Shown here: positions 5,873 to 62,667 of the stretch, piece after piece
Layout of the letters: every line of letters starts with the position of its first letter
How positions within the stretch are numbered: position 1 is the stretch's first letter
NCBI GenBank assembly: GCA_030427965.1
Contig: JAUICD010000006.1
Location: 6,769-70,768 of the forward strand
Length of the DNA stretch: 64,000 nt
Source of the DNA: Bdellovibrionia bacterium
GTDB lineage: Bacteria; Bdellovibrionota; Bdellovibrionia; Bdellovibrionales; JAUICD01
Direction: 5' to 3'
Translations under genes and position numbers: made by a program
The notes under the pieces: generated by a model
The model's database searches: none
Told to the model about the DNA's origin: nothing
Seen by the model: only the letters and a program-made list of their open reading frames with translations

Positions 5873-5877
5873 TTACT

Positions 5878-8660: not shown

Positions 8661-9222
8661 AGCCTTTCAAGAGTGCGGGGCAAGCGTTACAGTTTCTGAT
8701 CAAGTTTCTGCTATAGAGAATTGTGACAAGCTGGTGCTACCTGGCGTGGGAGCTTTTCCTGATGGGATGGCAAACTTAAAAGAACTCTTCTTTGTAGAGA
8801 AACTCAGGGAGACAGCGTCACTTGGAAAGAAACCGATTCTAGGAATATGTTTGGGTATGCAGTTGTTGTTTTCAGGAAGTGAGGAAGTCACGCCAACTGA
8901 TGGGTTGGGTTTACTGGAGGGGCAAGTTCTTTCGATGAAAAACATTGCTCCAGACCTAAGAAATCCCCATATTGGTTGGAACGAAGTTCATACTGTTGGT
9001 GGTAACCCATTGTTGAAAAACATTGAGTCTGGAACGGATTTCTATTTTGTACATAGCTTTTATTGCAACCCAAGTACAGAGTCAGAAGTTGTAGGCAAAA
9101 CGACTTATGGTAAAGAATACTGTTCGGTGGTGAATTCCGGGAATATTTGGGCGACACAGTTTCACCCAGAAAAAAGTTCAAAACCTGGTTTTCAAATCAT
9201 TAAGAACTTTTTGGCAATTTAG
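8608..9222 (+). CDS. glutamine amidotransferase subunit, HisH-like (glycan-locus paralogue)
   Basis: 204 aa. Starts MSVLIIDSGLSNLKSV. Catalytic GICLGMQLL and the C-terminal FHPEKS motif are present. Overlaps the preceding ORF by 53 nt. Confidence 0.85.
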   Translation: MSVLIIDSGLSNLKSVYRAFQECGASVTVSDQVSAIENCDKLVLPGVGAFPDGMANLKELFFVEKLRETASLGKKPILGICLGMQLLFSGSEEVTPTDGLGLLEGQVLSMKNIAPDLRNPHIGWNEVHTVGGNPLLKNIESGTDFYFVHSFYCNPSTESEVVGKTTYGKEYCSVVNSGNIWATQFHPEKSSKPGFQIIKNFLAI

Positions 9223-10002: not shown

Positions 10003-11384
10003 AAAGTAAACCGTCTGAAGAAAACTTTATTGAAGTTATAGAGCAGTTTGAGAAATCTATTGGCCAAACTGAAATCAAATATAGAGGTTTTGGGATCTGG
10101 TCGTTATTAAAACCTATTCTTACTAGAAGTATTCTCAGTCAGGCACACCAAAACTTAAATTTGAACCATCAAACAAAAGTAAGGAAATGGATGGTTGGAA
10201 GTAAATTTTTTGGGCTTTGGAATCTCTTTGGAAGATATGAGTATATATTTCTTACAAGCTCCAGGTCAAAAGTCAGGATTGAAGGAAAATATGTAGATCA
10301 ACATTGTGACCCGATTGCAAGAGAGTTAGGCGATAAGTGTTTGACGGTTGAGCGTCCCTATCCATTTCATTATCCGCGTTCCTCTTGTGAAAACAAAAAT
10401 GTTGTAACGATATCATTTGTTTCAATTCTTATGAAAATCTTTGGTTTTTTGTATCGAAAGCCCGTCAGTTTTGAAGGTCAAAGTGACCTATTGAAAGTGA
10501 TCAAAGAGTTTGATCTGAATGTTGATATTGCGAAGGAGTTTAGAGGGCTTTTTCTAGAATACCTAGCATATCGAACATTCTTTAAAATCTATCGCCCAAA
10601 GGAGATTTTTTTGGTTCTAAGAGGTTACTCTTTTTCTCCAGTATGGGCTGCGCATTCTTTGGGCATCAAGGTCAATGAGATTTCACATGGATTGCTTTAT
10701 CCAGAGCACCCATCTTACAACTCTATTTGTAAAATTGATCGACAAATGATTCCAGATCGTTACTGGAGTGTGGGGGGGACGGCGAAAGTTATAGAAAGCA
10801 CTAGGTCTTATTATAGCCCTGAAAGTCTTATTTCAATAAACTCCTTTTATATGGACTATCTTCAAAAGAAAGGAATTGCGAAAGAGTTTCAGAGGTACCG
10901 CCAAGGTTTTGAAAAGACTGTCGTGGTAACTTTACAGAACTCGAATGAAGAGTTGCTTCTTCCAGTCATTCGAGAGGCTGCTAAAAGGCTGCCTAATGTT
11001 TTGTTTGTTCTGGGTATTCGCTCATCAAAGCCAAGTTATGATGAGCTGGGTTTTACAAAAAATGTAGTCCGCTCGGATGTCGTGTTTTCAAGCCTGAATA
11101 TCTATGAAATGCTTGTGTCGTCTGACCTGCATATTACGATAAGTTCAACTTGTTCGATTGAGGCAACCTACCTTCAGAGACCTACAATTTTATTGAACTT
11201 AAAAGATCTTTCAGATCCGATTATAAAGAACTTCTATAGCGACTCATTGATGTGCGTAGCTCAATCTGTAGATGACGTGATTTCCCAGATCCGGTCGCTA
11301 TCAAACGAAGCCAATGTGAAGACTGATAGAGTGTCCGGAAAAGATCAAATTCAAAACGCCATTCGTGAAGTCGGTTTAGCTTAG
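9999..11384 (+). CDS. hypothetical protein, possibly a GT-B-like transferase
   Basis: 461-aa ORF, last gene of the wbpG-hisH-hisF operon (GTGA overlap). The C-terminal pattern VVVTLQNS...SDLHITISSTCSIEATYLQRPTILLN resembles the donor-binding half of GT-B enzymes. No confident family assignment. Confidence 0.3.
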   Translation: MKSKPSEENFIEVIEQFEKSIGQTEIKYRGFGIWSLLKPILTRSILSQAHQNLNLNHQTKVRKWMVGSKFFGLWNLFGRYEYIFLTSSRSKVRIEGKYVDQHCDPIARELGDKCLTVERPYPFHYPRSSCENKNVVTISFVSILMKIFGFLYRKPVSFEGQSDLLKVIKEFDLNVDIAKEFRGLFLEYLAYRTFFKIYRPKEIFLVLRGYSFSPVWAAHSLGIKVNEISHGLLYPEHPSYNSICKIDRQMIPDRYWSVGGTAKVIESTRSYYSPESLISINSFYMDYLQKKGIAKEFQRYRQGFEKTVVVTLQNSNEELLLPVIREAAKRLPNVLFVLGIRSSKPSYDELGFTKNVVRSDVVFSSLNIYEMLVSSDLHITISSTCSIEATYLQRPTILLNLKDLSDPIIKNFYSDSLMCVAQSVDDVISQIRSLSNEANVKTDRVSGKDQIQNAIREVGLA

Positions 11385-12434
11385 GATTTCCCAGCTCAGT
11401 GGTGTGCCCTTTTTAATGTTTTGGCGAACTTTTCTTCCTATAATATTTGATTTTTCTTTAACTGGAAGGCCGTAGCCTGGACGGATAGAGCGGATATTTT
11501 CTTCAGATATAGTGTCACCCTCGTTTAGATCTTTGCTTACAAAAAGCGTTCTACGGAATTGTTTGGACTTTTCCTCTTGTCGGCTCGAAATACCGTAGTT
11601 GACACGACCTAGGCTTTGCCAGGCTCGTTCCGTCTCAATAACCAAGGAGCCTAACTCCTGAGGCTCCAGAGAAAACGCAGAATCCACTCCGCCGTCTTCT
11701 CTATTGAGGGTAAAATGTTTTTCAATTAATGATGCTCCAAGTGCGACGCTTGCAACAGAGACTCCTATTCCCATAGTGTGATCTGAGAGCCCAACTTCAC
11801 ACTGGAAAAGGTCTTTCATGTGAGGAATTGTTAAAACATTACAAGACTCAGGGGATGCGGGGTAGGTGCTTGTGCATTTGAGTAAAACTAAGTTTTGACA
11901 TCCGTTTTTACGTGCCACATTTACGGCATCATAAATTTCAGAGACATTTGCCATACCCGTTGAAATAATTACGGGTTTCCCTGTTTGAGAAACCGAAGCT
12001 ATAAGATCGACATCAGTATTTTCAAATGAAGCGATTTTATATGCTGGGCAATTGAGTTTTTCTAAAAACTCAATTGCACTCAGGTCAAACGGTGCGCTAA
12101 AGCAAGTAATGCCAAGGTTATTGCAGATTTCAAAGATTTCTTTGTGCCACTCCCACGGAGTGTGTGCCTCATCATAAAGCTCATAAAGGTATCTTCCGTT
12201 CCAGAGACTCTTTGGGTCAGTGATTTGAAAGTGAGGGTCTTTTGAATCAAGTGTCATGGTATCAGCAGTATAAGTTTGAAGTTTAACTGCATGAGCACCT
12301 GCTTCATGAGCTGCATGGATCAATTGGATTGCGCGATCTAAAGACTTGTTGTGGTTTCCCGAGAGCTCTGCAACGACAAATGGGCGGTGTTCTTTTCCAA
12401 TGGATTGATTGCCAATTTTAAATGTTTCGTTCAT
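11376..12434 (-). CDS. pseI: pseudaminic acid synthase (NeuB family with C-terminal SAF domain)
   Basis: 352 aa. FVVAELSGNHNKSLDRAIQLIHAAHEAGAHAVKLQTYTADTMTLDS...LYDEAHTPWEWH...YKIASFE...GLSDHT...EKHFTL...IRSIRPGYGL closely matches the PseI/NeuB pattern. The Pse assignment rests on pseBCFG being in the same locus. Confidence 0.8.
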   Translation of the reverse strand: MNETFKIGNQSIGKEHRPFVVAELSGNHNKSLDRAIQLIHAAHEAGAHAVKLQTYTADTMTLDSKDPHFQITDPKSLWNGRYLYELYDEAHTPWEWHKEIFEICNNLGITCFSAPFDLSAIEFLEKLNCPAYKIASFENTDVDLIASVSQTGKPVIISTGMANVSEIYDAVNVARKNGCQNLVLLKCTSTYPASPESCNVLTIPHMKDLFQCEVGLSDHTMGIGVSVASVALGASLIEKHFTLNREDGGVDSAFSLEPQELGSLVIETERAWQSLGRVNYGISSRQEEKSKQFRRTLFVSKDLNEGDTISEENIRSIRPGYGLPVKEKSNIIGRKVRQNIKKGTPLSWEILS

Positions 12435-14181
12435 TTTTTTCCCACTTTTCTCTGAGTATGTTCAAGGTCCAAAGCCCCATAATTTCAAGGTAATAGTGTT
12501 TGTAAATGTTTGACTTCAAAACGCCCTTAAATCCAAACTCATTTTTCATTTCCGAGATGTCTTCAAGTTTCCCGGGTTCGAAAAGATTGTAAAACCCAAT
12601 ATAATCAACATTTGGATGGTTTTGGATTTTCTTTCGTCGTTCAATAAGATCGAGAAGTTTAGGTGGAACAGCTCTTCGTAGGTAGAATTTGAGAAGAGAC
12701 TTGTACTTTAGTTTTTTTGAAGTCATGTGATAATTGGCATCTAGAGTTCTGCCAGCAGCTATTGGGATCTGAAGAAGCTCAGGATGAGTGTTTGGATAGA
12801 TTTTTTTGACAACAAAGGTACGAAATAGGTTCCGATGTATTCTGTGCTTCAACGGAAGGGTATAGAAAAACTCTACCAACTCTCGGTCGGTAAATGGGAG
12901 TGTAACTTGAAAACCAAATTCCCGATACATTTCAATCCCGTTTAAGACAACGGCAGTGATTTTATTTTTCCAACGAAATGTTTCATCTCGATTGAGGCGG
13001 TTTTTGCCTTTGACTTGCAAATTGAGCAAAGCTCTTGCTTCCTCTTTAAAACCAAATTTATGAGAGTAAAATTTTTCAAAGGTGATGGAATTGTTTGTTT
13101 TCAAGTACTCTGGAATTGTAAGACCAGCTAAATTGTCCATTAAGTGGCCTGGAATAATGATCCCACCCTTGCTGTGGCGATTTGAAATTTCTTGGATTGC
13201 AAAGTAATCCACAAAATAGGGCAGTGCCTTTTCGGGATTGAAATCAAAGATTTTAGACTTTATAAGCTCTCGATTTTTCTTCCACAAATTTGGGGGATAT
13301 TCAAAGAACTCCCATTTAAGATCTAATTTTTTCGCTACGATTTTACTAATTTGGGCTTCCTCACTCTTGATGTCCTTGCCATATGTGTAGGAGTGGATGC
13401 GTTTTCTAAATCCTCTGCTGACAAGTTCGCTAGCAAGAAGGCGTGAATCCATCCCACCACTGAGTGGAAGAAATATTGGCAAATTTGGGAACGAGTTAAG
13501 GTAATTTTCAAGGCGTATCAATGTGCGTTTGTAAATTTCTCCGAGTTCTTGAATGAGAATTTCTTTAGAGCGTAAGTCTTTTTCACTATACGTCGGGAGT
13601 GTCCAATATGTCTTGGGTACTATAGAGCCATTTTTGAGAAATCGTAGATATTCACCTGCTCCGAGGTCTTTTACGGATTTAAAAAGAGTAGAGCCGGAGA
13701 GTGTACATCCGGTTCGGAAATAAAATTGTGCTTGGGTTTGGTCAATTTTTGGTGATTCAATTTTTTCTACCAAAGAACTGGCTTTATCAGACACCCAAGT
13801 TTTATCACCAATAGTTGTATAAAATATTGGGTAGGTTCGACATGGGTCAGAAACCAAAACTGTTTGTTCTGATGTCTCAAAAATAATTGACCAATTTCCG
13901 TTCAATTGAGCTAGGCACTCATCCAATTCGACTTGCGTGGGTGCTTTGAAAATTTCAAATATATAATCCAATGCTTGGGAGTCCCCTAAGAGGAGGTTTT
14001 CAGCTGTGTAGAAATATCCTCTGAAATGGACTCTTTGATTTGCCTGCTCACCTGAGGTCCAATCCGAATTCAAGAGCAGTTGAGCTGGGCCGAAACCATC
14101 AAGATTGCTGCTATGTGCCATAGAGCGATCTCTGTGAGATTGCTTTGTCTGAATTTGGGTGGTTTGTTGATGGTTATCCAT
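12418..14181 (-). CDS. asparagine-synthetase-like amidotransferase/ATP-pyrophosphatase (no N-terminal Cys nucleophile)
   Basis: 587 aa. PP-loop PLSGGMDSRLLASE sits mid-protein, and an AsnB-like N-terminal domain is present. The N-terminus (MDNHQQ... or MAHSSN... from ATG 14121) lacks the Met-Cys start of class II glutaminases. Confidence 0.65.
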   Translation of the reverse strand: MDNHQQTTQIQTKQSHRDRSMAHSSNLDGFGPAQLLLNSDWTSGEQANQRVHFRGYFYTAENLLLGDSQALDYIFEIFKAPTQVELDECLAQLNGNWSIIFETSEQTVLVSDPCRTYPIFYTTIGDKTWVSDKASSLVEKIESPKIDQTQAQFYFRTGCTLSGSTLFKSVKDLGAGEYLRFLKNGSIVPKTYWTLPTYSEKDLRSKEILIQELGEIYKRTLIRLENYLNSFPNLPIFLPLSGGMDSRLLASELVSRGFRKRIHSYTYGKDIKSEEAQISKIVAKKLDLKWEFFEYPPNLWKKNRELIKSKIFDFNPEKALPYFVDYFAIQEISNRHSKGGIIIPGHLMDNLAGLTIPEYLKTNNSITFEKFYSHKFGFKEEARALLNLQVKGKNRLNRDETFRWKNKITAVVLNGIEMYREFGFQVTLPFTDRELVEFFYTLPLKHRIHRNLFRTFVVKKIYPNTHPELLQIPIAAGRTLDANYHMTSKKLKYKSLLKFYLRRAVPPKLLDLIERRKKIQNHPNVDYIGFYNLFEPGKLEDISEMKNEFGFKGVLKSNIYKHYYLEIMGLWTLNILREKWEKNERNI

Positions 14182-15218
14182 GGAATGCCATAATGATAAA
14201 AATTGTTCGTGATTACAACACTCTTACTGAATTTCATCCTCATGTCCCGATTTTGGGAGAACCAGGGTTTTTGAAGTCTGTTGCAGGTTCTGAGGAATTT
14301 GGCTGGGCTGTGAATGACAAATTCGCCTTACCCTTTTATTTTAAAAGGGATTTCCCGGCGAGCCCTTTTCGTATCCCGAAAATCAGAAAAATCGCGTTTG
14401 CAACGCACTGTATTGAAAGGTCTACGACTTCTCCCGAGGAGGAACAAGAGTTTCTTGATGGCGTTATCGCGCACTTTTCAAACGAGAACGTTGATATGAC
14501 GTCGGTGTCCCCCTTTCGAATGGATCTCTATCGAGCTGCACCTCGGGGGGCGAAGGTTACGGAATTTGGTACTTACCGTGTAGATCTAAAGCCGTCTGAA
14601 GAAGAGATTTTTAAAAACATTCAAAAGCGAACACGGCAAGATATTCGTCGTGCGGAAAAAGATGGGTACTATGTGGAGGAGGGCTCCCACCTTTTGGAAT
14701 GTTGTGAGCGCCTGACTGTTGAAACAAAAGAAAGACAGGGAATTCGTGTTCGAGGTGGTTATCTTGGGACCTTTAAACGTCTTCAGGAAAGTTTGGATGA
14801 AAACTTTTCGATTATGGTTGTATTTGCACCCGACGGAACACCAGACACAGCTGTTGCGATTGCTTGGAAGAAGGGGTTAAGAGCATACAGTTTGTATGGC
14901 GGTGCAAAAGAAGGCGCTTCCCGTAACGCAGGAAAGCTTTTGTATGCCGAAGCATTTAAAAAGATGAAGCAGTATGGGGTGAGTGAATTTGATTTTGTCG
15001 GGGCTAGATTGAATGTTTCAAAAGATTCAAAATTTTATGGGATACAAACCTTTAAATCCAGAATGGGTTCTGAGTTACATCGTGGTTTGATTTGGAAATA
15101 CATTTACTCAAAAGAAAGAGAGACCTTGTCCAACTCTATTCGTAAAACGTCATTTTTCCTAAGAGGAAAGAAGTATATTGGTGACATTGTTGACCAAGAG
15201 CAAAATGCGAATCAATAA
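14145..15218 (+). CDS. FemAB-like / GNAT-fold acyl- or aminoacyl-transferase
   Basis: 357-aa ORF (TTG 14145; ATG 14193 is more likely because it avoids overlapping the divergent gene). The pattern KRTRQDIRRAEKDG...AYSLYGGA...NAGKLLYAEAFKKMKQYGVSEFDFVG resembles FemAB/BioF2-like acetyltransferase domains. By-eye call only. Confidence 0.45.
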   Translation: MSEFGWFVDGYPWNAIMIKIVRDYNTLTEFHPHVPILGEPGFLKSVAGSEEFGWAVNDKFALPFYFKRDFPASPFRIPKIRKIAFATHCIERSTTSPEEEQEFLDGVIAHFSNENVDMTSVSPFRMDLYRAAPRGAKVTEFGTYRVDLKPSEEEIFKNIQKRTRQDIRRAEKDGYYVEEGSHLLECCERLTVETKERQGIRVRGGYLGTFKRLQESLDENFSIMVVFAPDGTPDTAVAIAWKKGLRAYSLYGGAKEGASRNAGKLLYAEAFKKMKQYGVSEFDFVGARLNVSKDSKFYGIQTFKSRMGSELHRGLIWKYIYSKERETLSNSIRKTSFFLRGKKYIGDIVDQEQNANQ

Positions 15219-16287
15219 GTTTAAACCTCCTCAGTACTCCAAAGATTCTTTTGATCAAAAAGATCTCTCTGATCTACTTGGAAAAAACATTCAATATGCC
15301 TCTAAAGGACGGTGGGCTTTTCATCATATTTTGAAGGCAGAAAAAATTAGAGGCGATGTCGCGATTCCAGCTTATATTTGTGACAAGGTTTTATCGAGTT
15401 TTTCAGATACAAACGCCAAACCTGTTTTTTTTGATGTTGATCCGAGGGACTTGAACCCTTCTTTTGAGGACTTTGTGAAACTGGCAGAGAGTCGTCGCAT
15501 TGAAGCTGTTTTGGTTGCTAGCTTGTATGGCTTTCCAGCAGAACTGGATCGATTTGAAAAGTATTGCATGGAAAACTCAATCTTGATGATAGATGATGCT
15601 GCTCAGAGTTTTGGTGCGAAATTAAATGGTCGCTACGTTGGTAGCTTTGGAGGCAGTGGTTTTCTTTCGTTTTCCCCAGGTAAATCTACTGCGGGTCCGA
15701 TGGGAAGTTTCTTTTGGACAGGTAAAGAGTATAGCTTTGCTCGTTCGGAAAACACTCTTTTTCATTTAGTGAGTTATCTGGATTTTTATATCAATCGTTT
15801 AAAAGTAGATACCTTTAAAAGAATGAAGATGGGTGCATTGATTCCAATAGCTCAGAAATTCGTTTTTGATAAATTTCTTAAGACAGATATTCGAAATGAC
15901 GAGATTCCAAATTTTGAAAGAAAAATTTTAGAAGCAATAGTATTTGATATTTTGAATGGGAAATTTGATTTTAGAAAAAAATACTTTACCTTGTTAACCA
16001 GTTCCCTAGATAGACATGCATGTCTTGAGCCAGTTCGTTCGCTGCGAGGTGAGGACTATCCTCATAAATTGGTTGTTAGATGTAAAAACGCTGACGTTGC
16101 AGTGGCTCTAAGATCTTATCTTATGAAAGCGGACATTTATTCTGGATTTGGGTATCCGCTGTTGATGCCAGAGCATATTGATTTTGAGGGCCTTTCGACT
16201 GTGAGTGGAAGAATAGTCGAAATCCCAATTGAAAATGATGAAAAAAAGATGGAGTATCTGCAGTCGACTTTGAATCAGTTCTCATAA
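15205..16287 (+). CDS. DegT/DnrJ/EryC1-like PLP-dependent sugar aminotransferase (divergent)
   Basis: Core motifs IPAYICDKV, FFDVDPRDLNP and MIDDAAQSFGAKLNGRYVGSFG..SFSPGKS (candidate PLP lysine). The track start 15178 is a non-ATG extension. ATG 15205 overlaps the upstream gene by 14 nt. Confidence 0.55.
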   Translation: MRINKFKPPQYSKDSFDQKDLSDLLGKNIQYASKGRWAFHHILKAEKIRGDVAIPAYICDKVLSSFSDTNAKPVFFDVDPRDLNPSFEDFVKLAESRRIEAVLVASLYGFPAELDRFEKYCMENSILMIDDAAQSFGAKLNGRYVGSFGGSGFLSFSPGKSTAGPMGSFFWTGKEYSFARSENTLFHLVSYLDFYINRLKVDTFKRMKMGALIPIAQKFVFDKFLKTDIRNDEIPNFERKILEAIVFDILNGKFDFRKKYFTLLTSSLDRHACLEPVRSLRGEDYPHKLVVRCKNADVAVALRSYLMKADIYSGFGYPLLMPEHIDFEGLSTVSGRIVEIPIENDEKKMEYLQSTLNQFS

Positions 16288-39101: not shown

Positions 39102-39178
39102 TGGTGATTCGGCCAGGACTCGAACCTGGGACCCTCTGCTTAGAAGGCAGATGCTCTATCCAGCTGAGCTACCGAACC
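39102..39178 (-). tRNA. tRNA-Arg (anticodon UCU), CCA encoded
   Basis: Minus-strand sequence GGTTCGGTAGCTCAGCTGGATAGAGCATCTGCCTTCTAAGCAGAGGGTCCCAGGTTCGAGTCCTGGCCGAATCACCA. It folds as a cloverleaf with a 7-bp acceptor stem, D arm and T arm GGTTCGAGTCC. The anticodon stem TCTGC/GCAGA carries the loop CTTCTAA. Confidence 0.9.
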
Positions 39179-55254: not shown

Positions 55255-56535
55255 ATGCTCGCCATTCCAAATGTGATTAGTTTTGTACTACTACTTTTTG
55301 CTGTTTATTTTGCGCGAAAGAGAAATATTCGTGCTCACAAGTTCATGGTCTTTTTGACCATGATAACTTCCTTTGTTCTTGTTTACATGTTTGCGGAAAT
55401 GAGGCTTCAGGGAGGTTCGCTTGTCGATAAAGAACGACTTGCGAGTTTTTCAATCTGGTTTAAGTTTTTTTTGGGTTCTCACATTCTTGCGGCAACGGTG
55501 ACTTTTTTGATTTCAATCATAGTTGTTACTCTTGGTTTGTGCCAGAATAGAAAAGTTTGGCACAAAAGAGTCGCCTATCTACTTGTTCCAATTTGGGCTT
55601 ACTCTGCAATATCAGGTGTTGCAGTCTATGTTATGGTGGGAAGTCCTGATGAATCTCCGACGGTTTTAGAAAGCCTTGTTTCGCCTCGTGATCTAGGTGA
55701 ATTTGAACTTCAGTCAAACAGTCGCGGGAGTTTTACTCATGAAAACCTCAAAGGGAAATGGTCTTTGCTCACATTTGGCTACACGTTCTGCCCAGATATT
55801 TGTCCAATGACTCTTTCAGATCTCAATCAAGTGACAAGAGGGATTCAAGAGTCGTTGCAGGTTCTTTTTATCACAGCAGATCCAAAACGAGATAAGGCCG
55901 ATCTTCTTGAAAAGTACGTTCGGCAATTCAATTCCGAATTTATGGATTTGAGAAGTGAGAGTTCTGTTGAGGAAATTTTAAGTCATAGACTTGGTGCTAA
56001 GATTGTTTTGGAGGAGAACTTTAAAAGTGAACATTACTCTGTCTTTCATCCGACGGGTGTTTATCTGATTGCTCCTGATGGAAAGGTGTTGGGGTTTTAT
56101 AGACATCCAATAGATGTTAAAAAAACACGAGATGATTTAAAGCATATTATTGCAGAGTATGGAAAACATTTTGAAGTCAGAGATTTGAAAGTGATAGAAC
56201 CAATAAAAGGTGCGAGTGTTACCGCAGCATATGCAAATTTTTACAATAATTCACAATTTCCGATGCAGATAGTTGAGATTAGAAGTCCGAGTTTTAAAAG
56301 TGTCGAAATGCATAATACTGTTGAGCGTGATGGGACTATAGGAATGACAAAACAGCCCATTTTAAACATTCCACCAATGTCTTCTGTGACATTTAGCCCC
56401 GGGGGGCTGCACTTGATGCTCTTTGAACCTCTGAATTTGATTAAAATTAAGAATAAAGTCGAATTTCAGTTCTTAACTGGGGATGGGTTTCTTTTTCACT
56501 CGACTGCGACAGTCATCGATCGCACCGACCTTTGA
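55255..56535 (+). CDS. triple-domain copper/oxidase-assembly protein: DUF420 (CtaM-like) membrane domain + Sco1/SenC thioredoxin-like domain + PCu(A)C copper chaperone domain
   Basis: 426 aa. The N-terminal 4-TM part has DUF420-like spacing (RAHKFMV..., GSHILAA..., WHKRVAYLLVPIWAYSAISGVAVYVMV). The middle has the Sco motif FGYTFCPDICP and HPTGVYLIAPDG. The C-terminal has PCuAC-type VEMHNTVERDGTIGMTKQ ... GGLHLMLF (H..M ... HxM). Confidence 0.7.
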   Translation: MLAIPNVISFVLLLFAVYFARKRNIRAHKFMVFLTMITSFVLVYMFAEMRLQGGSLVDKERLASFSIWFKFFLGSHILAATVTFLISIIVVTLGLCQNRKVWHKRVAYLLVPIWAYSAISGVAVYVMVGSPDESPTVLESLVSPRDLGEFELQSNSRGSFTHENLKGKWSLLTFGYTFCPDICPMTLSDLNQVTRGIQESLQVLFITADPKRDKADLLEKYVRQFNSEFMDLRSESSVEEILSHRLGAKIVLEENFKSEHYSVFHPTGVYLIAPDGKVLGFYRHPIDVKKTRDDLKHIIAEYGKHFEVRDLKVIEPIKGASVTAAYANFYNNSQFPMQIVEIRSPSFKSVEMHNTVERDGTIGMTKQPILNIPPMSSVTFSPGGLHLMLFEPLNLIKIKNKVEFQFLTGDGFLFHSTATVIDRTDL

Positions 56536-56643
56536 CATCTTCTTAAAATATTTCTTACCGATAGATCAAACAAGAGATTCACTTTACTTGAATCATCTGT
56601 AAGTATTGGGCATACCTATTTTTGATATCAAGTTGGAGGTGCC

Positions 56644-56790
56644 ATGAGTGATGGTCGAAAACCTTTTCTACAGAAGTTGTTAGAAAGTCCCTTTTTACTT
56701 CTTTTGGCAGGAATACTAGTTATGTTCGTTTTTTACACAGGTTGGGGGATTTTTGAGATGCTCTCACTACCCCAAGCAACATTGCCATAG
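56644..56790 (+). CDS. unannotated 48-aa single-TM peptide (candidate small oxidase subunit, ba3 subunit IIa-like position)
   Basis: Below the ORF-track length cut-off. The ATG is preceded by GGAGG (5 nt). Translation is MSDGRKPFLQKLLESPFLLLLAGILVMFVFYTGWGIFEMLSLPQATLP. Its stop lies 14 nt before the subunit II start. Confidence 0.5.
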   Translation: MSDGRKPFLQKLLESPFLLLLAGILVMFVFYTGWGIFEMLSLPQATLP

Positions 56791-56804
56791 CGAGGGAGAG
56801 TGAT

Positions 56805-57362
56805 ATGAAAGAAGATTTGCACTCAAGTTTAGTATCGCCAAAGGGCAATTGGTGGCTTCCGATTGGTAAGCAAGAGAAGAAGTGGGTCACGATTGCTTTT
56901 GTTTGGTGTATGATTTTATTTTTTATGATGCCATTTTGGCATATCAAAGGTGGACAAAACCCATCTGGGATTCGATCAAAAGTAGAAGCTTCTGCTTTCC
57001 AAGCTCGAGTTGATCAGTTTATTCAAGACTATCAAGTCGGTGAAGAAAAGGGGATTCCAGTTGTTGCTCCTCCAGCAGGTAGTCATATTTATATGGCGGG
57101 CCGAATGTGGAGTTGGTATCCGGTTTTGAAACTTCAAAAAGGAGCGGAGTACACGCTTCACCTTTCTTCTCTTGATGTGAATCACGGGTTTAGTTTGCAC
57201 CCCGTGAATGTCAACTTTCAAGTCGTACCGGGGTATGATTACGGTTTAAAAATTGTACCTAATACAACTGGTGACTTTAAAATTCTCTGCAATGAGTTTT
57301 GCGGTGTTGGCCATCACTTAATGGTGGGTAAGGTTATTGTTGAGGAGGCTGCAGATGAGTAG
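56805..57362 (+). CDS. heme-copper oxidase subunit II (single TM + CuA cupredoxin domain, no cytochrome c domain)
   Basis: 185 aa with one TM (WVTIAFVWCMILFFMMPFW). CuA ligand set DVNHGFS ... CNEFCGVGHHLM (H, CxxxCxxxHxxM). GGGAGAG upstream of the ATG. Confidence 0.85.
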   Translation: MKEDLHSSLVSPKGNWWLPIGKQEKKWVTIAFVWCMILFFMMPFWHIKGGQNPSGIRSKVEASAFQARVDQFIQDYQVGEEKGIPVVAPPAGSHIYMAGRMWSWYPVLKLQKGAEYTLHLSSLDVNHGFSLHPVNVNFQVVPGYDYGLKIVPNTTGDFKILCNEFCGVGHHLMVGKVIVEEAADE

Positions 57363-59088
57363 CATGGTTTCAAGTCTAGCAAATCAATTTCGAACGTGTG
57401 GGGTCACGGGGCTCAAAGTCGATCGAACGGCTGAAAACTTAATCAAAATCAATGCTGTCGTAGCAGTGGTCTGTCTTCTTATTGGTGTTCTTGCTGCTAT
57501 TGGGTTGGTTTTGACTCGTTGGCAGGCTGTTCACTTGCTTGATCCAGTGATGTTTTATCGGTTTTTGACGGCTCATGGTCTTAATATGTTGATTTTCTTT
57601 ATCATATTTTTCGAAATGGCTGTTTTGTATTTTGCTGGGCCCGTGATGTTGTCGTGTCGATTGCCTGCACCTAAATTGGGATGGACATCGTTTATTCTCA
57701 TGCTTTTAGGAATGATCATTGTGAACTATACAGTGGCTGTTGGGCAAGCCGATGTTCTTTTCACTTCGTATCCCCCACTTAAAGCACACCCACTTTATTA
57801 TTTAGGAATCATTTTATTTGCAGTGGGTGCATTGATAGTGTGTGGGCTTTTCTTTGCGACCCTGGTGGTTGCAAAGAAAGAGAAAACGTATGAAGGACAA
57901 ATTCCTTTGGTTACCTTTGGAGGGCTAACTGCAGCAATTATTGCGGTGATCACTCTTCTTCATGGTGCTGCGATTTACATTCCCACTTTTTTGTGGTCAT
58001 TGGATTTGATGGCAATGGACCCTCAGCTTTATCGTTTGATCTTTTGGGGTTTGGGACATTCATCGCAACAGATCAATGTTGCTGCGATGGTTTCCATTTG
58101 GTATCTCCTTGCTGCGCTCACTGTTGGGGGAGTGGTTCTAAATGAAAAGGTCAGTCGAATGGCCTTTGTCCTTTATATTTTGTTTATTTCAATGGCCTCA
58201 GCTCATCACCTTTTGGTGGACCCAGGATTTGGTGCGGCTTGGAAGGTGTGGAACACGAGCTATGCGATGTATCTTGCCGTTCTTGCAAGTATGATTCATG
58301 GATTTACAGTTCCAGCTGGTATTGAAATGGGACAGAGGTTGAATGGATTCACAAAGGGAGTTTTTGGATGGTTGAAAAATGCTCCATGGAGTGATCCAGG
58401 GTTTTCTGGAATGGTTCTTTCTGTTGTGATCTTTGGTTTCATGGGTGGTATTACTGGTGTGACAATCGGTACTGAGCAGATCAATATTCTTGCCCACAAT
58501 ACTCTTCGTATACCCGGACACTTTCATGTGACTGTTGTTGGAGGAACTGCGCTCGCATTCATGGCTGTAACTTACTATGTTTTGCCTTTGATTTTTCAAA
58601 AACGAGTGGCGTTCTGGGGACTTGCAAAAATTCAACCCTATATATTTGCTGGGGGTATTTCAGTGATGGGTATGGCAATGACCTTTCAAGGTATTTTTGG
58701 CGTACCAAGAAGACACTTTGATATCACAAGTGCTGGGGCTCCATTTTCACCTGAATTTCATCCTGCCGTGAACCTTCTTCAGGCTGTTATGGGAGTGGCT
58801 GGCCTTGTTGCAGCTGTTGGTGTATTGGCATTTATTGCCATAGCTGTTGTAACTGTATTTTTTGGCAAGAAGATGACAGCTTCAGATATTGAGGCAAAAG
58901 CTTCTGGTATACCACAAGGTGTGCTTCGTTTACCAAAGCAGCAATATACAGCAAGTGAAGTTGAGGCTGTTCACAATGCTGGTGGAGCAAGGGGAACTAT
59001 GGTTCTTGTTGGTATTTTTCTTGTGTGTTTTGTGGCTTACTATTTTGTAAACTGGAAAATGTTGTCTTTCTTGTGGAAGATTGGGTAG
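57355..59088 (+). CDS. heme-copper oxidoreductase subunit I (B-family-like, active-site Tyr absent)
   Basis: ATG 57355 is preceded by GAGGAGG and overlaps the subunit II stop by 8 nt. His ligands: LTAHGLNML (helix II), FWGLGHSSQQ (helix VI), MASAHHLLVD (helix VII) and IPGHFHVTVVGG (helix X). Polytopic throughout, with an extra C-terminal TM. Confidence 0.85.
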   Translation: MSSMVSSLANQFRTCGVTGLKVDRTAENLIKINAVVAVVCLLIGVLAAIGLVLTRWQAVHLLDPVMFYRFLTAHGLNMLIFFIIFFEMAVLYFAGPVMLSCRLPAPKLGWTSFILMLLGMIIVNYTVAVGQADVLFTSYPPLKAHPLYYLGIILFAVGALIVCGLFFATLVVAKKEKTYEGQIPLVTFGGLTAAIIAVITLLHGAAIYIPTFLWSLDLMAMDPQLYRLIFWGLGHSSQQINVAAMVSIWYLLAALTVGGVVLNEKVSRMAFVLYILFISMASAHHLLVDPGFGAAWKVWNTSYAMYLAVLASMIHGFTVPAGIEMGQRLNGFTKGVFGWLKNAPWSDPGFSGMVLSVVIFGFMGGITGVTIGTEQINILAHNTLRIPGHFHVTVVGGTALAFMAVTYYVLPLIFQKRVAFWGLAKIQPYIFAGGISVMGMAMTFQGIFGVPRRHFDITSAGAPFSPEFHPAVNLLQAVMGVAGLVAAVGVLAFIAIAVVTVFFGKKMTASDIEAKASGIPQGVLRLPKQQYTASEVEAVHNAGGARGTMVLVGIFLVCFVAYYFVNWKMLSFLWKIG

Positions 59089-59120
59089 AGAATTTGAATC
59101 AAAATTCATTTCAAGGACCG

Positions 59121-59993
59121 ATGAATAAATCGGTCCTTTTTCTTTTCTTTTTATGGATCTTTGCCACCTGCTTTTGGTGGGGCTTTGCTTTTTTAAAACT
59201 TCCTGGGCCGACACCAGAGTGGCTGCTTGAGGCACAAGTGGTGTGTTTTGGAGAGACAGCGACAGGGTTACCTGATGCAGATGGGTGGCGAGCTCTTGTT
59301 TTTCCACCTCTTTTTATGATTGTAAGCTTGGTCTTTGTTTTTTTTCAAGATCTCAAGACTTCGCTAGAAACCTTGCTGCACTCAAATTTTGGAAGAGTGG
59401 CCGCTATTACTATAGTCGGTCTTATTGCAATAGAGGGAGCTCTTATTGTTCGTACGGTGGTGAATCGCTGGCCAATATCTGAGAACACAGTTGCAAATTC
59501 AGTCAATTTGCCCTTGAGGTACCCTAAAACTGAAATTAAAATTGAGGATTTTGATTTGATCAATCAGAATGAGTCAAAATTTGGGTTAAAGGATTTAAAA
59601 GGGAAGAAGTCAGTTTTGACTTTCGCATTTGCTAACTGTGACTCGATTTGTCCACTTGTTGTTAAAAACTGTGTTGAAGCAGTGAGAGAATTTGAAGAAA
59701 AAGACTTTCAGCTTGTGATTGTTACCTTAGACCCCTGGAGAGATTCTCCGAGTCGTCTTCGAGCGGCAATCAAAATGTGGGAGGCTACGGACAACACCCA
59801 TTTCTTGAGTGGAGAAGTGAAGCAGGTTGAGGAAGTACTAAAGAGTTTTAATGTGGCTTATGATCGAAACGAGAAAACGGGATTTATTTCTCATCCGGGA
59901 CTCGTGTATGTTGTGAATGAGGATGGAAGAATCTCTTACAGTTTTAATAACCCAAGTCGCCAGTGGCTTAAGGATGCGTTGAATAGGTTATGA
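59121..59993 (+). CDS. membrane-anchored Sco1/SenC-family copper chaperone/thiol-disulfide protein
   Basis: ATG 59121 is preceded by AAGGA. Hydrophobic segments (VLFLFFLWIFATCFWWGFAFL and others) precede a thioredoxin-like domain. That domain has LTFAFANCDSICP (CxxxC) and SHPGLVYVVNEDG. Confidence 0.75.
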   Translation: MNKSVLFLFFLWIFATCFWWGFAFLKLPGPTPEWLLEAQVVCFGETATGLPDADGWRALVFPPLFMIVSLVFVFFQDLKTSLETLLHSNFGRVAAITIVGLIAIEGALIVRTVVNRWPISENTVANSVNLPLRYPKTEIKIEDFDLINQNESKFGLKDLKGKKSVLTFAFANCDSICPLVVKNCVEAVREFEEKDFQLVIVTLDPWRDSPSRLRAAIKMWEATDNTHFLSGEVKQVEEVLKSFNVAYDRNEKTGFISHPGLVYVVNEDGRISYSFNNPSRQWLKDALNRL

Positions 59994-61369
59994 TTATAGA
60001 TTTATTGAAAACTCCAATTGCGTACATAGACCGTCTCTTTGTTTGGATTTATGGAACAAAGTTAAACCCTCTTCAGAGATCAGGAGCACTAACAGTAGGG
60101 ATTTTAATTTCCGTAATTGTATCTGGAACCTACTTACTTTTTTTCTATAGTGTGGGGGACCCTCATGGTTCTCTGATTGAAATTGAAAATCAATGGTATC
60201 TTGGTAAATGGATCCGCAGTTTTCACCGATATGCTTCAGATTTGGCTGTGTTGGTTGTGATTTACCACTCACTTTCTATGCTTGTTCAGAGAAGGTCTTG
60301 GGGACCAAGGACGTTGGCTTGGTTGAGTGGAACATTTCTTATGTGTTCACTGTTTATTTCAGGCTGGACTGGGTTTGTGATGGTTTGGGATGCTCACGGA
60401 CAAGAAATGGCTCAAGAAGGGGCACGTCTTTTTCAACTTGTTCCTTTCTTACGAGAAGATCTTGTGGCCTCTTTTTCAGGTGAGAACCCAATACCTGGCT
60501 CCTTCTTCTTTATGAATCTCTTTCTTCACGTTGCAGTACCTCTTGGTATGGTGATTGGACTTTGGATTCATATTTCAAAGATGGGGTCTGTTAAGATTTT
60601 TCCAAATTCACTCGTTTTCAAACTTTTAGTGGGATCTCTTATTTTGGCAAGCCTGCTTTTTCCTGCCCCACTTCTTAAAGAAGGGGATCTTGGAGCTATT
60701 GTTGGAACAATTCCATTTGACATATGGTTTGGATTTTTCTTGCCAATAAGCAAGACTCTTTCACCTTTGCTGAGCGTAGGTATTGTGGCTTTTGGACTTC
60801 TAACAATGGTGACCGCTATTTATTGGTCAGCCCCAAAGGACCGAAATGGAAAACTGACTCCTTTGCAGCGTCCTGAATTTCATCCATCGAGCGGGCGGGT
60901 TTACTTTAAGAGTGTTATTGGAAGTTTGTTTTTTTTGGGAATAGTTTTAATGGGAAGCCAAATTCCTATAAAGATGAACGATGCTCAAGCCATTTTACGG
61001 TTGAACTTCAGATTTGCAAACCTGAGAAAAAGAGATTGTCACAAACCTACGACTTTAGAAAAGGGTGATAAGCTTTCTCATATGCAGCTTCAAGAGATTT
61101 GTGTGACAGATCACATTCTATATGGGGTGCGTGTATATGTTGATTCGGAAAAAATTTATGATGAAGTGGTCAGAGATACGAGGTCAGAGCAACATAAATT
61201 TCGTCTCAATATGGACTACGATCTCAAGCCAGGAGAGCATGCGATTGATATTGAGATTGTCGCAAAAAATGAAGCGGGCGAAACTCTTAATCGCAAGTCG
61301 CTTCATCGTAACTTTGAATTTGAAAAGGGAAGAATTCGGTTGATCAGTTTTGATGGTGGTTTTAAGTAG
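59990..61369 (+). CDS. cytochrome b/b6 N-terminal-domain protein (di-heme) with additional TMs and a ~130-aa C-terminal soluble domain
   Basis: 459 aa. IRSFHRYASDLAVLVVIYHSLSM and FFFMNLFLHVAVPLGMVIGLWIHISK give two His pairs, each 14 residues apart, as in cytochrome b helices B and D. SGWTGFVMVWD resembles the helix C region. ATGA overlap with the Sco gene. Confidence 0.7.
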   Translation: MIIDLLKTPIAYIDRLFVWIYGTKLNPLQRSGALTVGILISVIVSGTYLLFFYSVGDPHGSLIEIENQWYLGKWIRSFHRYASDLAVLVVIYHSLSMLVQRRSWGPRTLAWLSGTFLMCSLFISGWTGFVMVWDAHGQEMAQEGARLFQLVPFLREDLVASFSGENPIPGSFFFMNLFLHVAVPLGMVIGLWIHISKMGSVKIFPNSLVFKLLVGSLILASLLFPAPLLKEGDLGAIVGTIPFDIWFGFFLPISKTLSPLLSVGIVAFGLLTMVTAIYWSAPKDRNGKLTPLQRPEFHPSSGRVYFKSVIGSLFFLGIVLMGSQIPIKMNDAQAILRLNFRFANLRKRDCHKPTTLEKGDKLSHMQLQEICVTDHILYGVRVYVDSEKIYDEVVRDTRSEQHKFRLNMDYDLKPGEHAIDIEIVAKNEAGETLNRKSLHRNFEFEKGRIRLISFDGGFK

Positions 61370-62667
61370 CCCATTTTAGAGAGCAGAACAAAAAACAGAG
61401 CACCACCAAAAAGCGCCATAAGTCCTCCAAAACCCATGACTGCAAGTCCTATGTATTGCTCGGTCTTGTGTAAGAGTTGTTCGTTGCCAAATGTTTTTCT
61501 TCCCAAACCATGAATCCCCGCATATGCAAATCCGATGCAGAAAGTAAATTGCCCGGTACCAAAAATAAGGGGTTGCTTGGAAATCCATTGGGATACGAAA
61601 GAGCTTTGGTTTTGTGGCATAGATTTTTGAATGAGAATGTATGACAAACACATAAAGGCAAGTATCACAGCTCCTGTTGTGGCGTGATAGTGGGCTGGGA
61701 TAAGTGTGTTGGATTCGCGAATTTGTGAACCTAGAAGAAACCCCAGTATGAGCAAAAGAGCACTCGACATAATCCCTGTGAACTCGAGTTCCTTTCCTTC
61801 AAAAGGTTTTTCTGAATTCAAGACTTTATGAATCATGAGTATGAGTACGATTGTAGCACTTGGCCATGTGGCCCATTTCATCAAAAGAGAAAAACCGAAT
61901 TGGTAATTGAGGCTTGTTGTTCCTTCATAAAGGAGTGCTGCTGTAGCTATTGTTGGGACGACAATGAGTGCAAAGAGAGTTCTGGCGACTCTTGCTTCAA
62001 TAAGAGCGCTTCCAGTCATTTGTTTGTATAAAATGAGCCAAACGACAATGAGAAGTGCAATATTGGCCATTTGAAGTATGTGCCCAGGACCCCAAAAGAG
62101 AAGTTCGTAGTAGTTTTTGAGTTCTTGATGAAAGGGGGAGGTGATGAAAGCTCCGATAAAGACCAATATGCTAAGGATATAGAGAAAGGCAGAGGCTTTG
62201 AGTCCGATTGCTGAGCCTATATCGAGCAATTGCTCGTCAGAAAATGTTTGAGATGAAATTTTTGAAAAAAGAACATCGACAATAGATGCGGCCACTCCAA
62301 ACATAAAGGTAGATAGCCCAAAGAGAAACAAGTTCCCATGGATAACAGGTATGTAGTTGGAAAGAACTGGGGTCGTATCACTAGAGAAGGCGCCGATGAT
62401 GAGAAAAACAATTCCAAGTGTTGAGATTCGATAAAAGAGGGGGCGAAATACTTTTTGTGGAAAGAGGTGGCAAAGGGCAGCAAGATTTCCGATAAACCAA
62501 CAGCTAAGTGTTAAGGTGACGTGGACGACGAGGCATTTTTTTGCAAAAACAGGATTCCCGATAATTGCATTTATGCCAGGAGCTCTTCCTAGGATTAGGA
62601 CAATTGAAAACAGCCCCCCTAAAAGAAGGCTAACAATTGAGAGTGACAACCAGTTCATTGTTTTCAT
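61303..62667 (-). CDS. heme-copper-oxidase subunit-I-like polytopic membrane protein, degenerate (CuB His-His pair missing)
   Basis: 454 aa, about 12 TM. By-eye homology to the 57355-59088 product: LLFWGPGHILQMANIAL vs LIFWGLGHSSQQINVAA, and IPAHYHATTGAVILAF vs IPGHFHVTVVGGTALAF. The region aligned to MASAHHLL reads IATAALLY. Confidence 0.5.
   Translation of the reverse strand: MKTMNWLSLSIVSLLLGGLFSIVLILGRAPGINAIIGNPVFAKKCLVVHVTLTLSCWFIGNLAALCHLFPQKVFRPLFYRISTLGIVFLIIGAFSSDTTPVLSNYIPVIHGNLFLFGLSTFMFGVAASIVDVLFSKISSQTFSDEQLLDIGSAIGLKASAFLYILSILVFIGAFITSPFHQELKNYYELLFWGPGHILQMANIALLIVVWLILYKQMTGSALIEARVARTLFALIVVPTIATAALLYEGTTSLNYQFGFSLLMKWATWPSATIVLILMIHKVLNSEKPFEGKELEFTGIMSSALLLILGFLLGSQIRESNTLIPAHYHATTGAVILAFMCLSYILIQKSMPQNQSSFVSQWISKQPLIFGTGQFTFCIGFAYAGIHGLGRKTFGNEQLLHKTEQYIGLAVMGFGGLMALFGGALFFVLLSKMGYLKPPSKLINRILPFSNSKLR

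Follow-up and report, generated by a model that had tools for sequence, protein, structure and literature searches.

The gene cluster

Positions 55255-61369 of the window, by which we mean the whole 64-kb stretch of DNA analysed here, carry a cluster of genes for a two-subunit enzyme related to the haem-copper oxidases, together with putative maturation and partner proteins. Its features are listed below; residue numbers within 57355..59088 refer to subunit I.

55255..56535, + strand: three-domain maturation factor of 426 aa, with a DUF420 membrane domain (Pfam, 1.3e-17), a Sco1/SenC domain (SCO1-SenC, 1.9e-28) and a PCuAC copper chaperone domain (1.1e-17)
56805..57362, + strand: subunit II, one N-terminal membrane helix and a cupredoxin domain with a complete CuA site (Pfam COX2, 3.2e-4; NCBIfam CoxB, 3.7e-12)
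57355..59088, + strand: subunit I, putative eNOR-type catalytic subunit of 577 aa (Pfam COX1, 6.8e-63)
57574-57576, + strand: H74 (TAHG), second low-spin haem ligand
58042..58080, + strand: helix VI motif FWGLGHSSQQINV, residues 230-242 (alignment to ba3 GHPIVY, codon check, conservation)
58057-58059, + strand: H235, first CuB/FeB ligand (alignment to ba3 GHPIVY)
58069-58071, + strand: Q239, in place of the cross-linked Tyr (alignment to ba3 GHPIVY, codon check)
58204..58209, + strand: H284-H285 (SAHH), helix VII CuB/FeB ligand pair, invariant across all alignments
58261..58263, + strand: Y303 of the N-T-S-Y motif that opens helix VIII, an invariant residue of the Gln-type clade alone
58519..58527, + strand: H389-F-H391 (GHFH) in helix X, axial ligands of the high-spin (H389) and low-spin (H391) haems
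59121..59993, + strand: membrane-anchored Sco1/SenC copper chaperone, probable start ATG 59121 (Pfam SCO1-SenC, 9.5e-26)
59990..61369, + strand: 459-aa membrane protein, cytochrome b/b6-like (Pfam Cytochrome_B, 1.4e-9; NCBIfam cytochrome b6 and ExtP)

The subunit I reading frame runs from an ATG at 57355, with a GAGGAGG ribosome-binding site 6 nt 5' of it, to a TAG at 59086-59088, and its start overlaps the stop of subunit II by 8 nt. In subunit II the CuA ligands are H127, C162, E164, C166, H170 and M173 (motif CNEFCGVGHHLM); these, as well as E24, are at least 90% conserved among 84 orthologues. The Sco1/SenC protein at 59121 has a CxxxCP motif with C205 and C209, plus H290 (numbering from the GTG at 59025). 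The 459-aa protein consists of an N-terminal four-helix di-haem domain, further helices and a C-terminal soluble domain, and its haem histidines form two pairs with a spacing of 14 (His79/His93 and His180/His194), all four at least 90% conserved. DUF420, found in the 426-aa maturation factor, corresponds to CtaM, an assembly factor of haem-a oxidases. A promoter scan around the operon stayed at chance level (19 sites vs 17.7 expected), and the sole match in an Rfam scan was one tRNA, far from the operon. A degenerate oxidase paralogue adjoins the operon.

Active site of subunit I

An earlier note on this DNA, made from the letters alone, had claimed that subunit I keeps all six metal-ligand histidines and has Gln where the cross-linked active-site Tyr should be. 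Both observations hold. The best PDB-chain match in a phmmer search was the ba3 oxidase of T. thermophilus (1ehk_A, 2.6e-43), and the alignment sets GHSSQQ on ba3 GHPIVY, so that H235 corresponds to ba3 H233 and Q239 to the cross-linked Y237. The histidines are those expected of a B-family-related subunit I, three for the non-haem metal (H235, H284 and H285) and three for the haems (H74, H389 and H391); all except the helix VI ligand H235 lie in the TAHG, SAHH and GHFH motifs that the note had pointed out. The B-family signature of the His-Tyr cross-link (GHPxVY) is broken by Gln at the Tyr site, and the alternative position used by the C family is Ile278, six residues before the HH pair in YILFISMASAHH (residues 274-285), again as the note had read it. 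Helix VI contains neither a Glu nor an HLWVEG-type motif, the absence of which had likewise been remarked.

The note had also proposed a check on the conservation of GHSSQQ among homologues. Of the 120 closest homologues, none of which falls below 73% identity, all but one carry GH-x-x-Q-Q, and Gln is kept at site 239 in 249 of 250 full-length relatives, down to about 45% identity. Because it is near-universal in both sets, Gln239 reflects neither a sequencing accident nor chance.

An AlphaFold model of subunit I (pLDDT 82.8, pTM 0.88) has as its top structural matches the B-family oxidases 7deg_A and 1xme_A (TM 0.76-0.79), and every one of the 50 top PDB fold matches listed is an oxidase of the A or B family, with no cNOR or qNOR among them. 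No experimental eNOR structure was found in the PDB sequence and fold searches (fold library to April 2026), and T. thermophilus ba3 (1ehk, 1xme) is the closest solved structure both by sequence (2.6e-43) and by fold (TM ~0.77). The two enzymes share the six His ligands, a CuA subunit II with a channel-entrance Glu, and equivalents of ba3 S309, Y248 and T315. In contrast, four ba3 residues are changed in subunit I (Y237 to Gln239, V236 to Gln238, W239 to Asn241 and T312 to His315), helix II gains a Glu (Glu87), one extra residue is inserted in helix VIII, and identity is only ~23-25%.

Phylogenetic placement

In a neighbour-joining tree of 54 sequences, built without the R. marinus and Magnetospirillum eNORs, all 27 of the Gln-type sequences fall into a single clade (100 of 100 bootstraps), with subunit I inside it. 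The other members come from Bdellovibrionota-like bacteria, Gemmatimonadota, Acidobacteriota, Chloroflexi, Thermus, Thermomicrobium, a haloarchaeon, and alpha- and betaproteobacteria. The Thermus branch includes WP_015717644.1, an accession named in the eNOR data set (PMC8756737). Plasmid matches from Geobacillus, Deinococcus and Methylobacterium were considered as sNOR references and rejected as ordinary Tyr-type B-family oxidases; the tree thus holds no sNOR sequence.

The closest relatives of the Gln-type clade are Tyr-bearing GHxxQY oxidases (P0126; P0128, Hodarchaeales; P0129, Thermoproteota; and P0145), its sister group at 86% bootstrap in this tree. They share with subunit I Glu87, Gln238, Asn241, Tyr274, His315 and the helix VIII insertion, at 38-44% identity, but differ in retaining Tyr239 and in having no N-T-x-Y303 motif. 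On both counts they are presumably O2 reductases, possibly those of the family termed K, with which eNOR is reported to cluster (bioRxiv 10.1101/592808). The position of this sister group fits that published clustering.

Probable assignment to the eNOR family

Gln in place of the cross-linked Tyr is the diagnostic residue of eNOR (PMC8756737, section 2.7.1 and Table A4, after Hemp & Gennis 2008); because Gln239 is this residue, the family is most probably eNOR, a known offshoot of the haem-copper oxidases. Subunit I would be a further member of that described family rather than a new catalytic variant. The member purified in 2024, from Rhodothermus marinus, reduces NO at 0.68 per s and does not reduce O2 (PMC11214002, section 6), with haem As in both haem sites (PMC11214002). 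The earlier note had suggested a candidate NO reductase, remarking that some Tyr-less lineages are proposed NO reductases of B-type oxidase origin, and had left its family unnamed; the diagnostic Gln and the behaviour of the purified enzyme favour that suggestion and supply the name, eNOR. Its alternative, a so-far uncharacterised catalytic variant, finds no support, the family being one already described (PMC8756737, PMC11214002). Taken together with the sequence features, conservation, clade membership and operon observed directly here, these points lead us to propose, with a probability of roughly 80%, that the genes at 55255-61369 code for a nitric oxide reductase of the eNOR type together with its maturation factors and partners, an activity that we infer from the R. 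marinus enzyme.

Relatives of subunit I are numerous, with 481 confirmed among GTDB species genomes. The R. marinus eNOR itself was absent from the best 120 matches of the subunit I or Thermus queries, from the plasmid collection and from the 80 loci retained in the genome scan. H391 gives way to Lys (GHFK) in Thermus and HR23 relatives; such His/Lys low-spin haem ligation is ascribed to some eNORs (PMC11214002). For the eNOR family as a whole, the literature cited here does not settle whether the non-haem metal is Fe or Cu.

The features shared with the eNOR family (Hemp & Gennis 2008; Murali et al. 2024) include B-family descent, the six His ligands, Gln at the cross-link site, a CuA subunit II, K-channel-like residues, Sco in the operon, His/Lys relatives and nir neighbours in some relatives. 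The cluster differs in its probable Bdellovibrionota host, a phylum not mentioned for eNOR in the literature cited here, and in its gene content. The described eNOR operon comprises subunit II, subunit I and sco1, often with a haem o/haem a synthase and an accessory protein (bioRxiv 10.64898/2026.01.22.701106). Subunit II, subunit I and Sco are all present here, whereas the cluster at 55255-61369 has no haem o or haem a synthase gene and has the DUF420-Sco-PCuAC fusion gene as an upstream extra. A haem o synthase does accompany the Defluviimonas and T. roseum relatives, and a search with the Defluviimonas cyoE recovered it at a few MAG loci.

Electron and proton supply

Subunit I would bind its low-spin haem through H74 and H391, its high-spin haem through H389 and the non-haem metal through H235, H284 and H285, with electrons predicted to pass from the CuA of subunit II to the low-spin haem and on to the binuclear site. 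The CuA site itself would be loaded with copper by the two Sco proteins and the PCuAC domain. On the ba3 alignment, Gln239 stands where O2 reductases need the cross-linked Tyr as a fourth electron donor. NO reduction (2NO + 2e- + 2H+ -> N2O + H2O) requires only two electrons and can dispense with the Tyr.

Protons would probably be drawn from the cytoplasm along a K-channel-like path that may lead from E24 of subunit II through T318, H315, S312 and Y250 of subunit I to Q238/Q239. S312, Y250 and T318 correspond to ba3 S309, Y248 and T315, with S312 and Y250 conserved in relatives, and E24 corresponds to ba3 E15; the ba3 K-channel residues are reportedly those described by Chang and colleagues in 2009. 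The analogy is partial, because ba3 T312 is replaced by an invariant His315 and ba3 Y244 by Val. If protons are indeed taken up from the cytoplasm, NO reduction would be electrogenic.

Gene neighbourhoods of relatives

The core of the cluster recurs widely. Among 82 related loci, the subunit II gene lies directly 5' of subunit I in 81 and a Sco homologue stands beside subunit I in 75, while a homologue of the cytochrome b-like gene adjoins the operon, downstream or divergent upstream, in 73-76 (~90%). The di-haem cytochrome b-like protein is thus a conserved partner, for which our guess is a role in feeding electrons from quinol or in anchoring the complex. By contrast, only the Sco part of the maturation factor was matched in related loci, so the DUF420-Sco-PCuAC fusion looks lineage-specific.

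Several relatives keep company with genes of NO and nitrite metabolism. The Thermus plasmid homologue has as neighbours nirS, a NirK-like gene, cytochrome P460, Rrf2 and DUF542, and in a Bdellovibrionota MAG (locus L008) the operon lies ~5 kb from the gene of a bona fide NirK that carries a cytochrome c domain (TIGR02376, 300.8 bits, above the cut-off). In all, five of the related loci have NirK-like genes and 14 have Rrf2 genes. The 64-kb window itself contains no gene for nir, nos or an NO sensor.

Alternative readings

The loss of Tyr239 went with the gain of Tyr303, part of the N-T-x-Y motif with which helix VIII begins. Throughout the Gln-type clade this residue is invariant; the nearest Tyr-type relatives lack it, as do classic B-family sequences. 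It is placed close to the periplasmic end of the helix, roughly level with the metal ligands. Counted back from S312 (ba3 S309), Y303 takes the position of ba3 V300. In ba3, the helix VIII residue that faces the CuB ligand H283 is, we assume, T302; the V300 site would then lie two residues, or about 200 degrees round the helix, away from it. The clade-specific Tyr303 leaves a small doubt as to the absence of a Tyr at the CuB His. There is some chance, though a limited one, that the Gln-type clade is not simply a B-type oxidase minus its Tyr, in that Tyr303 sits at the binuclear site or the cytochrome b protein acts as a quinol-oxidising subunit. If Tyr303 did reach the binuclear site, or cytochrome b did oxidise quinol, the enzyme would be an eNOR with a different active site or one with a self-contained quinol-to-NO path. 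Neither a Tyr303-containing eNOR active site nor such a path has been described so far.

Could the enzyme have another role in this organism, be it NO detoxification only, turnover of peroxide, nitrite or N2O, or quinol-dependent reduction with the cytochrome b-like partner in place of a cytochrome c-dependent NOR? The 64-kb window holds no denitrification gene, a divergent or generalised role of eNOR homologues has been left open (PMC8756737), and the eNOR literature cited here does not explain the presence of the di-haem cytochrome b-like gene at ~90% of loci. We nonetheless consider such a role unlikely: the sole biochemical data on the eNOR family are of NO reduction to N2O, NirK, NirS and Rrf2 genes neighbour several relatives, and the complete CuA of subunit II is the usual acceptor from soluble electron carriers.

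A third reading, that subunit I is still an O2 reductase in which another redox-active residue such as Tyr303 replaces the helix VI Tyr, much as the helix VII Tyr does in the C family, strikes us as very unlikely. It would account for the restriction of the invariant Tyr303 to the Gln-type clade and for its level on helix VIII, and oxidase-like traits extend to the CuA subunit, the copper chaperones and the K-channel-like residues. Against this, Tyr303 is predicted to lie well round helix VIII from the T302 site, the C-family position is occupied by Ile278, models of these NOR families show no migrated Tyr (PMC11214002, sections 5 and 6), and the purified R. marinus eNOR reduced no O2 with any donor tried (PMC11214002).

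It is highly improbable that subunit I is not an eNOR but a member of one of the other Tyr-less NOR families akin to B-type oxidases (sNOR, bNOR, gNOR or nNOR). The sNOR cluster of ammonia oxidisers is norSY-senC-orf1, which the order subunit II, subunit I, Sco and membrane protein resembles, and sNOR was considered for its Sco and membrane-protein neighbours. Like the present enzyme, sNOR and bNOR (Bacillus azotoformans) are Tyr-less, B-type-derived NORs that have a CuA subunit and a neighbouring Sco gene, but they form separate clades, share one active site (PMC11214002) and have Asn at the Tyr site (PMC8756737, Table A4) where Gln239 stands here, which led us to reject sNOR. In gNOR an Asp takes the place of one of the three His and CuA is missing (PMC11214002), whereas here there are three His and a full CuA; nNOR has cNOR-type Glu residues and His/Met haem ligation, neither of which is seen here; and subunit I clusters with Thermus, Chloroflexi and haloarchaeal Gln-type sequences at 100% bootstrap. 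Membership of cNOR or qNOR was rejected as well: helix VI lacks the Glu that binds FeB in those enzymes, the partner subunit is a CuA cupredoxin in place of the cytochrome c subunit of cNOR or the fused single polypeptide of qNOR, and the fold matches, among those listed, were all A-/B-family oxidases.

Annotation and distribution

Given the database labels of the closest named entries, and with no NCBIfam model reaching its cut-off, genomes of this kind would be scored as having an extra oxidase instead of an N2O-producing enzyme. With the Gln signature recognised, the metabolism of this organism, probably one of the predatory Bdellovibrionota to judge from the best matches of the gene cluster, can be read correctly. 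The value of the analysis lies in this correct annotation and in a short list of conserved residues and partners for the eNOR family; it opens no new question. [quoted passage not shown]

Active site of subunit I

The haem-copper subunit I encoded at 57355–59088 is a new member of a family already described, that of the eNOR nitric oxide reductases, as set out below, and the label of its closest named database entries, cbb3-type oxidase subunit, is for this protein a mislabelling. The gene has a ribosome binding site (GAGGAGG) 6 nt upstream of its start codon, overlaps the stop of subunit II by 8 nt, and encodes a protein matching Pfam COX1 at 6.8e-63.

57355–59088, +: subunit I, 577 aa (open reading frame, Pfam COX1); ATG at 57355, TAG stop at 59086–59088
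58042–58080, +: helix VI motif FWGLGHSSQQINV, residues 230–242, containing GHSSQQ
Subunit I, H74: TAHG motif
Subunit I, H284 and H285: YILFISMASAHH motif
Subunit I, H389 and H391: GHFH motif

Among all PDB chains, the best phmmer match is the B-family ba3 oxidase of Thermus thermophilus (1ehk_A, 2.6e-43). This alignment pairs GHSSQQ with GHPIVY of ba3, so that His235 corresponds to the CuB ligand His233 and Gln239 to the cross-linked Tyr237. An earlier note, made from the sequence alone, had quoted motifs with the metal-ligand histidines, every one of which is present (H74, H235, H284, H285, H389, H391), and its central observation, a Gln where the cross-linked active-site Tyr is expected, is borne out by this pairing. 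It was also right that the alternative Tyr position of the C family, six residues N-terminal of the HH pair, is an Ile (Ile278), and that the cNOR-type Glu is missing, as helix VI of subunit I contains no Glu. An AlphaFold model built on an alignment of 28 sequences (mean pLDDT 82.8, pTM 0.88) is structurally closest to B-family oxidases (7deg_A, 1xme_A and relatives; TM 0.75–0.79), followed by A-family oxidases, with no cNOR, qNOR or eNOR structures among the 50 fold matches listed.

The same note had raised the question of how far GHSSQQ is conserved among homologues, and the Gln proves to be fixed: of the 120 closest homologues, which share at least 73% identity and come largely from Bdellovibrionales and Oligoflexia MAGs, only one lacks GH-x-x-Q-Q, and the column of position 239 holds Gln in 249 of 250 full-length relatives, at identities down to ~45%. 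Among 1.84 billion cluster representatives searched, the relatives fall into three tiers. The first consists of Gln-type proteins (59%, 48% and 43% identity, the 43% one from Natrarchaeobius, a haloarchaeon), the second of a few Tyr-type GHxxQY proteins (38–44%) from Hodarchaeales and Thermoproteota MAGs, and the third of classic B-family GHP(L/V)VYFW sequences at ~30%. A translated search of plasmids added Gln-type relatives from cultured or named organisms, on a Defluviimonas plasmid (53% identity), several T. thermophilus megaplasmids (46–47%) and a Thermomicrobium roseum megaplasmid (46%). Five further haem-copper homologues from outside the window (P0168, P0182, P0229, P0236 and P0252, from Dehalococcoidia and other MAGs; 28–33% identical to the query) have F-H-x-x-H-Y in helix VI, Y-H for the HH pair and G-Y-F-H for G-H-F-H, which puts Tyr at the expected positions of one copper ligand and of the high-spin haem ligand.

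Assignment to the eNOR family

A conserved Gln at the cross-linking Tyr site sets eNOR apart from other NORs and from oxygen reductases (PMC8756737, section 2.7.1, Table A4, after Hemp & Gennis 2008), the corresponding residue being Asn in sNOR and Glu in cNOR and qNOR (PMC8756737, Table A4). The purified eNOR of Rhodothermus marinus turned over NO (0.68 per s, measured at 25 °C), none of the donors tried supported O2 reduction, and models of these NOR families showed no migrated Tyr (Murali et al. 2024; PMC11214002).

In a distance-based tree (neighbour joining, 54 sequences of subunit I, 100 bootstraps; the R. marinus enzyme not being among them), the 27 Gln-type sequences form a single clade in 100 of 100 bootstraps. 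Its hosts comprise Bdellovibrionota-like bacteria, Gemmatimonadota, Acidobacteriota, Myxococcota, Chloroflexi, Thermus, Thermomicrobium, a haloarchaeon, and alpha- and betaproteobacteria. WP_015717644.1, which PMC8756737 lists among its eNOR sequences, falls in the Thermus branch. The Thermus and HR23 proteins carry GHFK in place of GHFH, matching the His/Lys low-spin haem ligation present in some eNORs (PMC11214002) and thereby tying the window protein to eNOR. The nearest neighbours of the clade are the Tyr-type GHxxQY proteins (86% bootstrap), and such a Tyr-bearing sister group fits the reported clustering of eNOR with an O2-reductase family named K (bioRxiv 10.1101/592808). Taken together, the clade, the shared accession, GHFK and the sister group indicate that the window subunit I belongs to eNOR. 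The proposal of a candidate NO reductase is supported, and eNOR is the family name that the earlier note had left blank.

Residues particular to the Gln-type clade

Conservation of at least 95% is seen at 96 positions across 39 Gln-type sequences (pairwise identity <75%), and these positions were compared with those of four Tyr-type sisters and of 14 sequences from the B family. Glu87 (helix II), Gln238, Asn241, Tyr274, His315 (ba3 T312) and a one-residue insertion in helix VIII are common to the Gln clade and the Tyr sisters and not found in the B family. S312, Y250, T318 and subunit II E24 match ba3 S309, Y248, T315 and subunit II E15, which we take to be the K-channel residues (attributed to Chang et al. 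2009); these matches are in line with the K-like channel that has been claimed for eNOR in the literature.

Specific to the Gln clade are Gln239, Thr301, Tyr303, Ala308, Val309, Phe350 and Val369. Tyr303 (nt 58261–58263), invariant in the clade, is the Tyr of an N-T-x-Y motif where helix VIII begins on the periplasmic side. The motif was not found in the four sisters or the 14 B-family sequences, and arose together with the Tyr-to-Gln change. Among the results, Tyr303 alone is relevant to the case raised in the earlier note of a Tyr from another helix being positioned at the CuB His. Counting back from S312, Tyr303 corresponds to ba3 V300, two residues from T302, presumably the helix VIII residue facing the CuB ligand H283; Tyr303 would therefore not obviously point toward the metal site. 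At the cytoplasmic N-terminus, at least 95% of the Gln-type clade shares the motif R13-x-C15-x-x-T18 (FRTCGVTGL; residues 13–18, window 57355–57420), which the Tyr-type sisters retain in part and which is not found in B-family oxidases.

Gene cluster and proposed mechanism

Subunit I belongs to a cluster of five genes, all on the + strand (55255–61369), the other four being:

55255–56535, +: DUF420-Sco1-PCuAC fusion (Pfam domains), a single 426-aa protein with DUF420 as membrane domain
56805–57362, +: subunit II, one membrane helix, complete CuA site (H127, C162-x-E-x-C166-G-x-x-H170-x-x-M173)
59121–59993, +: membrane-anchored Sco
59990–61369, +: 459-aa cytochrome b/b6-like protein, extended by further helices and a soluble domain at the C-terminus

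The CuA ligands are at least 90% conserved among 84 subunit II orthologues. Synteny was compared in 82 loci, 80 of them from GTDB species genomes (63–75% identity; kept from a genome scan) and two from the Thermus and Defluviimonas plasmids. Subunit I is adjoined by a subunit II homologue in 81 of these and by a Sco homologue in 75, and the window order, subunit II–subunit I–Sco, agrees with that of the Ferrigenium straubiae eNOR operon (bioRxiv 10.64898/2026.01.22.701106). That 2026 preprint terms cytochrome b-like neighbours unusual; among the 82 loci they are the rule, not the exception, adjoining the eNOR genes in 73–76, either downstream or divergently upstream. The window protein is of the di-haem kind: its first four helices match cytochrome b/b6 and keep two His pairs (H79/H93 and H180/H194, each spaced by 14 residues). 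A small protein homologous to a 172-aa Defluviimonas ORF follows the cytochrome b-like gene in ~31–35 loci and is absent from the window. Matches to the DUF420-Sco1-PCuAC protein in related loci are partial, none covering half its length, and none of the loci compared showed all three domains joined; the fusion thus looks lineage-specific.

At 59113–59138 (+), 25 nt past the subunit I stop, a G+C-rich hairpin of 10 bp precedes a T-rich run, and the probable Sco ATG (59121) starts in the 5' arm of the hairpin and extends into the loop. Between subunit I and the accessory genes, such a hairpin could serve for attenuation or for the control of translation.

Observed directly are the cofactor ligands, with their conservation, and the operon; the NO-reducing activity, the proton path, the identity of the non-haem metal and the role of the cytochrome b-like protein are inferred. 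Electrons would pass from a periplasmic donor through CuA and the low-spin haem to the high-spin haem and three-His metal site, where two NO molecules would yield N2O. Protons would come from the cytoplasm via the K-like path, which would make the reaction electrogenic. Assembly of CuA would fall to the Sco proteins and the PCuAC domain.

Nitrogen-oxide genes and window surroundings

No nir, nos or NO-sensor genes occur in the 64-kb window, and the link of eNOR genes to nitrogen oxides comes from the loci of relatives. On T. thermophilus plasmid NZ_LR027520.1 (L001; locus coordinates 1951–16196), both subunits lie beside nirS, a NirK-like copper protein, cytochrome P460, an Rrf2 regulator, DUF542 and a YwiC-like protein; this block adjoins an IS982 transposase and is a mobile nitrogen-oxide island. 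A Bdellovibrionota MAG (L008) encodes, ~5 kb from its eNOR genes, a NirK that carries a cytochrome c domain at its C-terminus and exceeds the TIGR02376 cut-off (300.8 vs 296.3 bits). Neighbours in the MAG loci include NirK-like genes in five, a nirS-like gene in one and Rrf2 genes in 14.

The remainder of the window holds mostly polysaccharide biosynthesis and housekeeping genes. Positions 1–38000 carry sugar-nucleotide and polysaccharide genes (NeuB, DegT aminotransferases, epimerases, glycosyltransferases, a Wzy-type ligase and a carbamoyltransferase), a surface-polysaccharide locus unrelated to the eNOR finding, and a single tRNA (39105–39178, −) is found just beyond these positions.

Tail-to-tail with the eNOR cluster, and overlapping the cytochrome b-like gene by 67 nt, is one further gene:

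61303–62667, −: 454-aa membrane protein, degenerate oxidase paralogue (hhalign to subunit I)

The protein has no Pfam or NCBIfam matches, and hhalign identifies it as a distant paralogue of subunit I (98.6%, E 9.5e-16, 399 columns). Its family numbers at least 221 proteins in Deltaproteobacteria, Myxococcota, Burkholderiaceae, Verrucomicrobia and other MAGs. The family lacks the HH pair and the Tyr, and retains the helix II His, the helix VI His (FWGxGHxLQ) and the helix X His-x-His (PAHYHA), which leaves both haem sites in place and a single His at the copper/iron site. Two homologues stand alone, with neither a subunit II nor a Sco gene.
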